Shown here piece after piece: positions 55,523 through 59,629 of a stretch of 60,754 nt of DNA. This DNA is from Enterobacteria phage JenP1. The position numbers and the translations under genes were made by a program. Under the pieces are notes generated by a model, which worked only from the letters and a program-made list of their open reading frames with translations, was not told the origin of the DNA and did not search any database. Location of the stretch: sequence record NC_029028.1. One strand, given 5' to 3'. Each line of letters starts with the position of its first letter. The stretch's first letter is position 1.

Positions 55523-55798
55523 ATAAAACCCCCTTTTGGTATGTATACTTGCCCAACTAGTATGGTAGTTTAAAAAACGCTACCCCCTGGGCCCAATGGA
55601 GTAGCGTTACGCAACGCTTGCACGCTGCGTAAGTGCTGCGCGTGGGGGTGTACCCCCACACAGCACGGGTATTATAACGCATCCAGTGGATGTAAAAAAC
55701 TAGTATTCAAAAATAGTCTTGTAAATTTTTAAGTCCTACTATTAAAAGCAATCCGCATAGTAACCGACGCAACTATGCAAACGTATATAGCAACGATG

Positions 55799-55987
55799 TG
55801 TATAATAACAGACATTACTATATAGTCCGTTATGGTAGGCTGTGCCACTATCCATAGGTTATACTATGTGCATGTATATAGTAACGGATGTAATAATACT
55901 GGACATTACAGTATGGTGATGCAATAGATAGCACACTAATCTAATAAAAAATAATAACGCGTGTAATAATAAACAACGTTACAATAG
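55799..55987. repeat. three imperfect ~27-bp direct repeats (TGTAATAATA-n-GACATTAC-n-TAT) in divergent control region
   Basis: copies at about 55799-55825, 55889-55916, 55963-55987. Confidence 0.55.
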
Positions 55988-56350
55988 AACACACAACAGT
56001 CACATGACGTAACAATCACCTCACTGACGATCACGGGACGTTATAGTAACGCCGCGGGGCGGCTCTTAGATCTCTGCCAAGGATTCTTCGTTTGTAGATT
56101 ATCTCGTCACTAGACACTTTATATCCTCACCTCACATGTCCTATATTGTTCGTATAAAGTTAGTTCCGTATGTAAATACTCGAGAGACGATTTAAAACAT
56201 TCGGTTTGCCGGTATGCGTAACGGATTCTGCGGCACCATGAATTAAAGCACACGAGACGACTAACTGTGGTTATTAATTGTTGCGGTCACGTATGTTAAT
56301 CAACTTGCGTATCCTGTTATAGTTATTCCGTTAACGTTAAAGGGGGTTAT

Positions 56351-56713
56351 ATGAACGAGAATATAGTTAAAGCCTGGTCTATGTTAAGACCACAGCTAAA
56401 AGACGATCGCGTCGCTTTTACTTTGTGTCCGACTAACGAGTATCGCCGACAGCTTGAAGAAGTGTTGCGCGAAGATCCTGAGTTTGTTCGCTGTGTGCAA
56501 CTGTCGCGTGAGTCATCCGTAGTACAGTTCGATCGCTTCCACCTTCGTTTGGTTTCTCATCACAGAGCCTCGTATGAAGACACTGTTATTCGTACGAGCG
56601 GCTTCCATTGTGACATTGCAATTCTTGATTGCAAATTGGACATTGAGCAGAAACAAGATTTATATAATCTCGCTCATGAACGTCACGGTGAACTGTTAAT
56701 TGTGGAAGTGTAA
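56351..56713 (+). CDS. hypothetical protein, first gene of rightward array
   Basis: 120 aa; RBS AAGGGGG before ATG. Confidence 0.45.
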   Translation: MNENIVKAWSMLRPQLKDDRVAFTLCPTNEYRRQLEEVLREDPEFVRCVQLSRESSVVQFDRFHLRLVSHHRASYEDTVIRTSGFHCDIAILDCKLDIEQKQDLYNLAHERHGELLIVEV

Positions 56714-56715
56714 TA

Positions 56716-57054
56716 ATGGCCAAAGATATCGTTATTCCGAAAATGTATTGTCAGCTCCGTGATGCTTTGTTACAGAGCGGTTGGATTATTAGTCACAGCG
56801 ATGTAAATGACACTTATATTGTTCTTATACCACCTGAAGGGACGATATCCTGCATTCTGCACTATATGCCCGAAGCGAAGACGGTTTACCCGAACGGTTC
56901 ATTCTTGCTACGCTTGCGCTCCGATACATGGAAGATCCAGACGGATACCTGTGCAATTGACGAGAATACCAGTAAAGAGTTTATTCGTAAGCTGAAGCAG
57001 ATGAATAAAATTTACGAGCATGTTAAATTTGACTTATTTAAGGAAGTTTTCTAA
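56716..57054 (+). CDS. hypothetical protein
   Basis: 112 aa ORF. Confidence 0.4.
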   Translation: MAKDIVIPKMYCQLRDALLQSGWIISHSDVNDTYIVLIPPEGTISCILHYMPEAKTVYPNGSFLLRLRSDTWKIQTDTCAIDENTSKEFIRKLKQMNKIYEHVKFDLFKEVF

Positions 57055-57494
57055 TGATTACCATGAAAGACCGTATCACCCATAAAACTCAGCAAAGCAT
57101 GATGGCTTGCATTCCTACCTGCCTTGCTATGCTTCTTGACAAAGACCCTAAGCAGGTGGATGACGAGTTCACAACGGATTATATTCGTGGTTTTACTGAC
57201 GTGTCGAACTATCTGTATAAGCACGGTGTCTTTGCGCAACCACATATCACCGCTGGTATGCACCAGATTCGACCTGGGCGCTTGTATCTTGCCACTGTAC
57301 CCTCTTTGCAGTTACCTGGGCTTTTCCATCAGATCATTATCGACGCTCGTTTTGATGGTGTAACCGTATACGATCCAGCGAAAGGTCTGGAAGGGAAACA
57401 ATACTATTCCTATGACCACATTGCAGAGGATAATGAGTTGGCATATCCTCTGCGGTCTTTCCTGATTGATTACGAAATTATATTACCGGAGTGA
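57054..57494 (+). CDS. papain-fold cysteine peptidase domain protein (C39-like)
   Basis: 146 aa; Q...MACIPTCLAML (Gln/Cys region) and downstream H/D-P arrangement HQIIIDARFDGVTVYDP resemble C39 peptidase domain. Confidence 0.45.
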   Translation: MITMKDRITHKTQQSMMACIPTCLAMLLDKDPKQVDDEFTTDYIRGFTDVSNYLYKHGVFAQPHITAGMHQIRPGRLYLATVPSLQLPGLFHQIIIDARFDGVTVYDPAKGLEGKQYYSYDHIAEDNELAYPLRSFLIDYEIILPE

Positions 57495-57497
57495 TTT

Positions 57498-57860
57498 ATG
57501 AGCTTGCAACGTTTTGACAATGCAGAACTCGCGTGTGAATTTGCAAAGCGCAAGTTCGCTAAAACAGGTACGCCGCGATGCGTGCACGCGGCTGTAGCGC
57601 AAAATGGGGCGAAATACTGGTACGTCGGTACGGTAGCTCAGATCAAGCGAAGATTCGCGACTACGCCCGAAATGCGCCGGCTTGTATCTGCCGCACTTGT
57701 ACGAAACAGACACTTGGATAAAGAGGAAATTTATCGGTTTCTTAGAAATTATACTGGTAAAGGGAATAGATTCCAGGTCGCGGCGAACGAATTTAATATT
57801 GGTCTTTCAACTGCTTATAAAATTTATTATGAATATCGGAAGACGAGCTTCAACAAATAA
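57498..57860 (+). CDS. putative DNA-binding protein with C-terminal helix-turn-helix
   Basis: 120 aa; C-terminal FQVAANEFNIGLSTAYKIYYEYRK HTH-like. Confidence 0.4.
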   Translation: MSLQRFDNAELACEFAKRKFAKTGTPRCVHAAVAQNGAKYWYVGTVAQIKRRFATTPEMRRLVSAALVRNRHLDKEEIYRFLRNYTGKGNRFQVAANEFNIGLSTAYKIYYEYRKTSFNK

Positions 57861-58122
57861 AACATGTTTATTTGTATGTAACCACGGTGATGAAATCGTC
57901 GGCATTGAAGCTCATCGCTGTGGTTGGAATGTCATTAAACGTCTTGCGAATAAGAAGTTTAAGTTTCGTCGTAAAGGGCAAGAAGTAACAATCTCCGTGT
58001 TTCACATAGAGAAACCGGAGGTTGCCAAGCGGGCGATTGATACATGCGTCGCTAAGTATAACATCAAAGACCGTAAGATTTATCACAATGATATTATCGG
58101 TCTTATTCTTGGAGATAAATAA
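57829..58122 (+). CDS. hypothetical protein
   Basis: first in-frame ATG 57829 (ORF track 57682 overlaps upstream gene); ~97 aa. Confidence 0.3.
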   Translation: MNIGRRASTNKTCLFVCNHGDEIVGIEAHRCGWNVIKRLANKKFKFRRKGQEVTISVFHIEKPEVAKRAIDTCVAKYNIKDRKIYHNDIIGLILGDK

Positions 58123-58616
58123 TGACTGCAATTGCTTATCGCAATGGGATACTAGCTGTAGATCGTCAGGTTACATGGGGTAATGTTGCAACAACTACAA
58201 ATAAAGTTCATACTGTCAATATTCCAGGGATTGGACTGTGCCTTGTTGCAATGTCTGGTAAACTACGTCCTGTAGATGATATTGTAGAACATCTGAAAAC
58301 TACGGTTCGTGGTCGTAAAGAACCTTTCTCGGATTTAAATCCAGATTCCCGTTATGGTATTGCAGTGACGCAGGAACTTGTCGTGTATCCTATCTACGGG
58401 GATGGTAAATTAGGCCTACCGGACACCAACGAATTTATTGCCGAAGGTAGTGCGTTTGAGTTCTTGATGGGCACAATGGCGGCAGGTTGCACCGCCGAAG
58501 AAGCTGTACAATTGGCCTGCCAGTATTGTGATAGCTGTGGTCAGGGTGTCAACTTCTATGACGTAGCTTATACTCTTAAAATGGCTCAGTGTACAACCGA
58601 GGAGGAACCATTTTGA
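58122..58616 (+). CDS. HslV/proteasome beta-subunit-like Ntn-hydrolase (threonine peptidase fold)
   Basis: N-terminus MTAIAYRNGILAVDRQVTWGN parallels HslV [24 protein letters not shown]; Thr directly after Met; internal Lys and GSA motif in register. Confidence 0.55.
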   Translation: MTAIAYRNGILAVDRQVTWGNVATTTNKVHTVNIPGIGLCLVAMSGKLRPVDDIVEHLKTTVRGRKEPFSDLNPDSRYGIAVTQELVVYPIYGDGKLGLPDTNEFIAEGSAFEFLMGTMAAGCTAEEAVQLACQYCDSCGQGVNFYDVAYTLKMAQCTTEEEPF

Positions 58617-58804
58617 AGAAACCTAAGACTGGTCTGTTCCTTTGTATTGGTGGACCTTTTGACGGTAAGCGTATACGCTTAACAACATCAGATCTATATC
58701 CAAGTTCCTCCGTTTTCTCTGTTCCATCCTATAAAAATGGTGAGAAGGGGAAATACGTTTGGAATGATGAAATTCGAAATAGTGTAATCTGGAGAACATC
58801 ATGA
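58613..58804 (+). CDS. hypothetical small protein (TTG start?)
   Basis: ORF overlapping end of HslV-like gene. Confidence 0.3.
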   Translation: MKKPKTGLFLCIGGPFDGKRIRLTTSDLYPSSSVFSVPSYKNGEKGKYVWNDEIRNSVIWRTS

Positions 58805-59025
58805 GCGATCCTTCTAACGCACAATTAGCGGCTGCAAGAGTGTATATGCGCGGAGCTGCCGCTGAGATTGAGGTCTTGCCACAATTCGAGAAGCACGTAC
58901 AGCAACTCGAAGATAAATTCAAGGCCCTTAAAGACTTATGGGATAAGAAAGATGCTATAGCCTTTCTTCTTGCGATTCAATACTTGTCTATGGGAATTGG
59001 TGAGAAGGTATGTTCCTTAGAATAA
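58801..59025 (+). CDS. hypothetical small protein
   Basis: 74 aa ORF. Confidence 0.35.
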   Translation: MSDPSNAQLAAARVYMRGAAAEIEVLPQFEKHVQQLEDKFKALKDLWDKKDAIAFLLAIQYLSMGIGEKVCSLE

Positions 59026-59507
59026 TTAGTAAGGTTGCGCCTTGGATACTACTTGTCCTAATTGTTATTCTAGCCAACTGGGCTTATGACAATGCCATAG
59101 AAACAGCTAGAAAGGAGGGTTTCGATGCCGGTGTGTCGTACCAAAAAGAAACTCAGAAAGCGGTTGATTTCGAGGAGGAGAAACGAAGAGCATATGAGAA
59201 AGACGCTATCGAACGTCAGTACCAATCTCGCATTGAGTCTTTGGTTGCCGATCTTAATGATTATCGCGCTACTAATGACAGGTTGCACAACGAAATCGCA
59301 ACCATCCGTAAGTACCTCGGTGACGCTACCGGCCCTCAGCCCGACAGCAAGACAACCGCCCAGATCGCCCGTGTGCTCACCGAGCTGTATTCAGAAAGCG
59401 TCACAGAATACAGACAAGTGGCAGAAGAGGCTGAAAAGTATCGTCTTGCCGGCGAGCAGTGCGAACTACAGTATGATGCAATGCGAAATCCGCATAAAGA
59501 AAAGTGA
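59010..59507 (+). CDS. i-spanin (Rz-like) lysis protein
   Basis: N-terminal TM helix APWILLVLIVILANWA followed by charged coiled-coil periplasmic domain; o-spanin ORF overlaps in +1 frame. Confidence 0.65.
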   Translation: MFLRIISKVAPWILLVLIVILANWAYDNAIETARKEGFDAGVSYQKETQKAVDFEEEKRRAYEKDAIERQYQSRIESLVADLNDYRATNDRLHNEIATIRKYLGDATGPQPDSKTTAQIARVLTELYSESVTEYRQVAEEAEKYRLAGEQCELQYDAMRNPHKEK

Positions 59508-59538: not shown

Positions 59539-59629
59539 CTAAACGTTCGATCTTAATTGCACATAATTGATTGTGTGCGTGTGATAATTCAACTATGCTC
59601 TATTCGGTTTAACTGAATGGAGCTTTTTT

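Follow-up and report, generated by a model that had tools for sequence, protein, structure and literature searches.

A probable PPH-type, HslU-independent threonine hydrolase encoded upstream of the lysis genes of Enterobacteria phage JenP1

A stretch of 60 754 nucleotides from Enterobacteria phage JenP1 (sequence record NC_029028.1), referred to below as the window, was analysed over its whole length with regard to one gene at positions 58122-58616 (+), which very probably encodes a proteasome homolog of the PPH family. The window covers nearly the whole genome of a Nonagvirus coliphage (9g/JenK1-like, Queuovirinae) and is collinear with JenK1. The coding sequence, stop codon included, specifies a protein of 164 amino acids (aa) with the N-terminus MTAIAYRNGILAVDRQVTWGN. 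A Shine-Dalgarno-like GGAG (58111-58114, +), read straight off the sequence, lies 7 nt 5' of the ATG. No possible start codon lies between an in-frame stop and this ATG, so that the protein can have no propeptide. The pairwise ratio of non-synonymous to synonymous substitutions (dN/dS) was 0.05-0.25 against the orthologs of three Nonagvirus phages (BRET, JenK1 and HdK1); 58122-58616 is therefore a real gene under purifying selection. This open reading frame (ORF) and its Met-Thr start in the register of HslV had been proposed in a preliminary description of the DNA, and both were borne out, the register by alignment to Escherichia coli HslV.

The segment 57000-60000 was matched by 16 phage records at 90-94% identity, and the orthologs of the 164-aa protein in these records were 87-94% identical to it. 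They are labelled 'peptidase HslV family' in RefSeq and, in one GenBank record, 'proteasome subunit alpha type-2'. In PHROGs, the protein was assigned to phrog_1040, 'peptidase HslV family' (E=6.5e-36). The family was found in 33 phage records, mostly from enterobacterial hosts, with one Erythrobacter phage. An exhaustive representative search gave 604 clusters at E<=1e-3, nearly all of them 140-165 aa long and aligned from residue 1. The family median length was 153 aa, most members had 140-169 aa, and 93% of 205 collected members started with Met-Thr or Met-Ser. One match of 1218 aa (P0070), a eukaryotic immunoglobulin-repeat protein, was discarded as spurious. The protein is no overlooked curiosity: it fits a published family, PPH (PMC8665760), and its orthologs already carried an HslV-family label.

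Single-sequence searches of Pfam, NCBIfam and PDB with the 164-aa protein gave no match. A profile built from 49 homologs matched solved structures of HslV (4hnz, E=2e-7), BPH (8e-5) and proteasome beta5 (~2e-4). With hhalign, the protein was aligned to E. coli HslV from residue 1 with a probability of 88% (E=3e-6). The AlphaFold2 monomer model was of high confidence (predicted local distance difference test, pLDDT, 94; predicted template modelling score, pTM, 0.88) and had the proteasome-beta/HslV fold, including the alpha-beta-beta-alpha sandwich of N-terminal nucleophile (Ntn) hydrolases. The distance of this fold to HslV, to proteasome beta (beta5i) and to BPH was about the same; HslV was the best match in both sequence and fold, by a small margin. 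Profile methods and fold therefore agree in placing the protein in the proteasome/HslV superfamily of N-terminal-threonine hydrolases.

Conservation of single residues was scored in a family alignment of 195 sequences, with members down to ~22% identity. Thr2, Asp14 and Lys28 were aligned with Thr1, Asp17 and Lys33 of E. coli HslV by both profile and sequence alignment. Thr2 (codon 58125-58127, +), the predicted N-terminal nucleophile after Met removal, corresponds to Thr1 of HslV and the proteasome and was Thr in 92% and Ser in 7% of members. Asp14 (58161-58163, +) and Lys28 (58203-58205, +) were each 98% conserved. The oxyanion-hole glycine, Gly46 (58257-58259, +), equivalent to proteasome Gly47 and HslV Gly48, was 97% conserved. 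Gly109-Ser110 (58446-58451, +) correspond to the motif Gly128-Ser129 of the proteasome and Gly123-Ser124 of HslV, Ser110 being aligned with HslV Ser124; Gly was found in 99% and Ser in 71% of members. Position 139 was Cys, Ser or Thr in 84% of members and was followed by Gly in 78%; we take it to be the position of the proteasome Ser169-Gly170 motif. In the preliminary description, lack of conservation of the Thr and the catalytic Lys had been named as one finding that would speak against a peptidase; the two residues were kept in 98-99% of homologs.

A set of four cysteines was also observed, Cys40 (58239-58241) together with C133-x2-C136-x2-C139 (58518-58520, 58527-58529 and 58536-58538). 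All four were present together in 30 of the 195 members, a Queuovirinae-like clade, against ~5 expected under independence. They may form a structural metal site.

The part of the HslV fold that is missing was located at codons 58-76 (58293-58349, +). Secondary structure assigned to the model with DSSP gave helix H1 at residues 48-58, then coil, then a strand at 77-83, with a pLDDT of 92-97 over the block. A confidently modelled loop of 18 residues thus follows H1, in place of the helix H2 and pore loop of HslV and the proteasome. A 141-aa family member of 23% identity, modelled separately at pLDDT 95, was likewise devoid of H2. The span from Gly46 to Gly109 was 63 residues, both in the JenP1 protein and as the family median, versus 75 in HslV. 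In proteasome and HslVU structures, H1 and H2 form the face touching the alpha rings or HslU, and H3 and H4 make the ring-to-ring contacts. The role of H3/H4 in these contacts is confirmed in PMC8665760. The most conserved non-catalytic stretch of the family was H3/H4 (G117-A132). Judged from the models, the side of the protein that has been lost is the partner-facing one.

Residues involved in HslU docking were then compared. The pocket for the HslU C-terminal tail in E. coli HslV consists of Phe54, Phe57, Ala79, Lys80 and Gln114 (PMC6429459), and Arg86 and Arg89 are pore residues (PMC5777263). In an approximate, low-identity alignment, Phe54 was replaced by Asp52 and Phe57 by Val55, Ala79, Lys80 and Gln114 fell in gaps, Arg86 and Arg89 also fell in gaps, and Lys90 was replaced by Ser76. 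Since H2, the pore arginines and most of the tail pocket are missing, cooperation with host HslU is disfavoured. The proposal that HslV-like rings dock onto host HslU or ClpX as unfoldase, and so degrade host factors or time lysis, was the one made in the preliminary description, and we now consider it improbable. It draws on the small margin by which HslV is the best match, on the presence of hslVU in the E. coli host and on the position of the gene upstream of the lysis cassette. Against this stand the loss of the docking surface just described, the fact that a tblastn search with E. coli HslV is blind to the gene, and the behaviour of BPH, a similar HslV offshoot that does not bind HslU (PMC5777263). 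A ClpX partnership meets a further objection. ClpX docks by its IGF loops onto ClpP, a protein of unrelated fold.

An ATPase partner was also searched for in the window itself. No HslU-like sequence was found there, tblastn with E. coli HslU giving nothing better than an E-value of ~1, and canonical Walker-A motifs were present only in the large terminase and in a Sak4-like recombinase. The initial statement that the window encodes no HslU-like AAA+ partner therefore holds. No AAA+ unfoldase is listed in the collinear JenK1 annotation, and neither an AAA+ neighbour nor a recurrent partner was seen beside the distant homologs examined, whose metagenomic contexts were all phage-like.

We conclude, with a probability of roughly 0.75, that the gene encodes a PPH-type, HslU-independent Ntn threonine hydrolase, catalytic activity and HslU independence being the predicted parts of this reading. 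The fold, the conserved active site, the loss of H2, the absence of an ATPase and the position in the operon were observed, and from them the following course of events can be proposed. Met1 would be removed by the host methionine aminopeptidase, exposing Thr2. Thr is a permitted second residue for Met removal, and E. coli HslV matures in the same way. The Thr2 hydroxyl would then serve as the nucleophile and its free amino group as the base, with Asp14, Lys28, the oxyanion hole at Gly46 and Gly109-Ser110 contributing to catalysis in the manner of proteasome beta subunits. With H2 and the HslU-docking residues lost, and an AAA+ gene absent from the phages examined, the protein most likely acts without HslU. 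It would be an ATP-independent peptidase for unfolded, peptide-sized or specific substrates. In the absence of a propeptide, control of its activity must come through assembly, whatever oligomer would be formed, or through substrate access.

Several points weigh against this conclusion. In standard peptidase assays, BPH, the nearest ATPase-independent relative, was inactive (PMC5777263), and a protein with an intact active site thus need not be a general peptidase. The literature searched contained no experimental study of PPH. The Pfam Proteasome and NCBIfam models give no match to the protein, and membership of PPH, whose reference is WP_042125023.1, was assigned from the defining features of the family. 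The residue mapping across H1-H2 is approximate, as identity in the underlying alignment is low, and the change of Phe57 to Val55 is conservative.

The same active site could also carry out a sequence-specific reaction, either as a connectase-like transpeptidase or ligase or by processing a single site in one phage or host protein. Connectase owes its specificity to a two-helix insertion between S3 and S4 that is not present in PPH (PMC8665760). The insertion helices were missing from both models, the 164-aa protein was far nearer to HslV and BPH than to connectase, and no conserved neighbour gene hinted at a dedicated substrate. A reaction of this kind is accordingly thought unlikely.

The gene belongs to a co-directional string of closely packed genes delimited from ORFs and PHROG and Pfam assignments (56351-59507, +), which ends at an Rz-like spanin gene. 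It consists of two genes of unassigned function, a homolog of C39/papain-like cysteine peptidases, a 120-aa gene, a small inserted ORF, the PPH gene, two small genes and the spanin gene. No terminator-like site was found within 56351-59507. The first terminator-like hairpin downstream (59597-59623, +; a 12-bp stem followed by a T-run) lies between the spanin and endolysin genes, and was found by a consensus scan in which the number of such sites did not exceed shuffled expectation. The endolysin and holin genes follow it. In Nonagvirus-type phages, the PPH gene would thus be co-transcribed with a string running into the spanin/endolysin/holin cassette. In the segment 55000-60754, 16 sigma-70-like sites were counted against 13.0 in shuffled sequences (standard deviation 3.7); as this is no excess, the timing of expression cannot be read from the promoter scan. 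PADLOC gave no match to defence or anti-defence systems.

The order of the genes is kept in JenK1, BRET, HdK1 and Klebsiella phage vB_Kpn2-P2, and it extends over relatives of the Nonagvirus, Seuratvirus-like and Klebsiella phage groups. Farther away, the homolog was found among small early or replication genes, or between tail genes (PEi21). In two distant metagenomic phage lineages (contexts P0046 and P0054), it is embedded in the head module, with the portal gene on one side and the major capsid gene on the other.

These positions bear on a further reading, in which the protein would be a prohead or scaffold protease of virion morphogenesis; we rate this as very improbable. It is suggested by the place of the homolog between portal and major capsid genes in the two metagenomic contigs, by the JenK1 head module, which has a scaffolding protein and no annotated prohead protease, and by the JenP1 gene string, which runs on to the lysis genes and then to the terminase. 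The varying position of the gene (early or replication genes, tail genes in PEi21, upstream of the lysis genes in JenP1) and its frameshift in the 9g deposit argue the other way. To our knowledge, the prohead proteases described have herpesvirus-assemblin-like or ClpP-like folds and not an Ntn fold, which also counts against this role. An association with the virion had been considered from the 'structural/virion protein' labels in BRET and HdK1, and was rejected as these belong to the endolysin gene. It is hardly credible that the protein is a decoy or structural element which keeps the fold and is catalytically irrelevant, for instance by blocking host HslVU assembly, for although BPH is inert in vitro and no PPH activity has been shown so far, a catalytic set conserved at 97-99% down to ~22% identity is hard to explain without catalysis, and the HslU-docking surface that a decoy would need is missing.

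Neighbouring genes were examined for a fixed association with the PPH gene. The gene at 57054-57494 (+) encodes a 146-aa protein (phrog_4049) annotated in a few records as a papain-like or C39 cysteine peptidase. It contains Cys and His motifs in common with a CSP1C homolog and gave no sequence match in PDB. Its family spans Ackermannviridae-size phages and Pseudomonas and Vibrio phages. Its product is a predicted second peptidase of the gene string, encoded two genes upstream of PPH. Obligate pairing of the two was rejected, this family being found in 168 phage records versus 33 for PPH. Pairing with the upstream gene of ~120 aa (57498-57860) was rejected as well, since its positional equivalents in vB_Kpn2-P2 and PEi21 have no sequence similarity to it. 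In one Klebsiella phage record, the equivalent of this gene is called 'late transcriptional activator'.

Between this gene and PPH, an insertion of ~270 bp (57840-58118) was found that is not present in BRET, JenK1 or other Nonagvirus records. It is placed exactly at the junction at which, in the usual arrangement, the end of the upstream gene and the PPH start overlap in ATGA. A possible ORF of 97 aa (57829-58122, +) in the insertion ends in TAATG on the PPH start codon. Its sole similarity was a weak tblastn match to Klebsiella phage K9PH25C2 (E=6e-6), and matches in Pfam and NCBIfam were not significant. On the other side, a 63-aa gene (58613-58804, +; phrog_12090) has an apparent TTG start overlapping the PPH stop (TTGA). 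The same 4-nt overlap was found between gp80 and gp81 of JenK1. The overlap suggests translational coupling.

Upstream of the string, a non-coding stretch of ~700 bp (55640-56350) separates it from a leftward gene block. It contains three copies of an element of ~36 nt (55787-55822, 55878-55913 and 55951-55986; ATAGYAACG..TGTRTAATAA..AC.TTAC), spaced 73-91 nt apart and showing inverted-repeat relations to one another. These repeats may be promoter, operator or origin elements.

The distribution of the family was also followed outside the closest relatives. When bacterial genome contigs were scanned with the profile, the sole match was a 615-bp contig (NZ_MPDK01000107.1) in the assembly of the acidophilic Firmicute Sulfoacidibacillus thermotolerans, 97% identical to the JenP1 gene. 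This contig is almost certainly a phage contamination of the assembly. Two partial entries, 'Dyella japonica' (P0010) and 'Enterobacter cloacae' (P0042), may be similar cases. In BFVD, 40 viral predicted structures matched the model at E<=1e-3. Among them are jumbo phage proteins of 170-200 aa (Erwinia EamM-type, Ralstonia RP12) as well as proteins from Caulobacter phages that carry the label 'Proteasome subunit beta' or 'Ntn hydrolase'. Phages thus encode proteasome-like proteins fairly often, and more than one of the published groups is probably represented. In the type phage 9g (NC_024146.1), a one-base deletion beside an A-run splits the ortholog gene, and in RefSeq the annotation 'peptidase HslV family' is limited to the C-terminal 83 aa. 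This frameshift may be a sequencing error; otherwise it hints that the gene can be dispensed with in the laboratory.

A wider role can be put forward as a speculation, to which we give a rather low probability. PPH could be an autonomous viral threonine protease that needs no ATPase, or a transpeptidase of the connectase kind, directed at a specific target in host or phage; cleavage of this target late in infection would tune lysis or disable a host stress or defence factor. If this were true, cleavage would occur just ahead of lysis-gene expression, and a viral proteasome homolog would receive its first functional assignment. The loss of H2 might then also have given the proteasome fold a new quaternary arrangement. 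A well-conserved PPH is present in Nonagvirus coliphages infecting E. coli K-12, including the BASEL isolates FritzHoffmann and ChristophMerian. These phages offer a genetically tractable system in which the role of a minimal ATPase-less proteasome homolog for a virus, and of H2 loss in assembly, can be addressed.

Comparison with the known systems was made group by group. The protein is not HslV proper. Of its initial naming as an HslV/proteasome-like peptidase, the superfamily, the fold and the catalytic residues stand, and the identity with HslV does not. Identity to HslV was 18-24% in structural and profile alignments, and a tblastn search with E. coli HslV missed the gene even at E=10. 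The curated models missed the protein, with no match to Pfam PF00227 and none in NCBIfam at E<=1; PF00227 was matched, weakly, by only 3 of 49 relatives. HslV has helices H1-H4, with the Arg86/Arg89/Lys90 pore cluster on H2 and the HslU-tail pocket, whereas the JenP1 protein is without H2, Arg86/Arg89 and most of the pocket. HslV also has a cognate hslU gene, unlike the JenP1 protein in its window. HslV is a dodecamer of two hexameric rings; for the JenP1 protein such an assembly, like a part in the timing of lysis, is speculative. In BPH, H1-H4 are kept and the pore loop is long and acidic; the protein assembles into heptameric double rings and is encoded on chromosomes, not by phages (PMC5777263). 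The corresponding loop of the JenP1 protein, KTTVRGRKEPFSDLNPDS, is not acidic. Connectase, an archaeal proteasome-like protein ligase, resembles the JenP1 protein in being an ATPase-independent proteasome homolog from which flanking helices have been lost. AAH, too, is known from phage genomes; it was excluded, as it should retain H1-H4 (it is not listed in PMC8665760 among the helix-lacking homologs) and H2 was missing in both models.

PPH and RPC are the sole homologs in which just H2 is missing, and propeptides are absent outside the proteasome and HslV groups (PMC8665760). RPC has an additional C-terminal domain and was ruled out, since the JenP1 protein continues beyond its last core strand with no more than a tail of ~20 residues (helix 148-160). 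PPH was defined in 2021 as a phage-borne group I homolog of ~140 aa, without H2, propeptide or co-occurring AAA+ protein, and group I PPH radiates from BPH/HslV (PMC8665760). The family, its active site and its missing ATPase partner are thus already published. The JenP1 protein was placed in group I, nearest to HslV and BPH. It shares with PPH the compact group I form, the Met-Thr start, the absence of a propeptide, the Thr1/Asp17/Lys33/Gly47 set and the lack of H2. It further shares the absence of a C-terminal extra domain, the occurrence in tailed phages of Proteobacteria and the absence of an AAA+ gene. Its 164 aa exceed the ~140 aa quoted for PPH; the extra length consists of loops and of the C-terminal helix 148-160, a clade-specific feature missing from the 141-aa member. 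The four-cysteine set is likewise specific to its clade.
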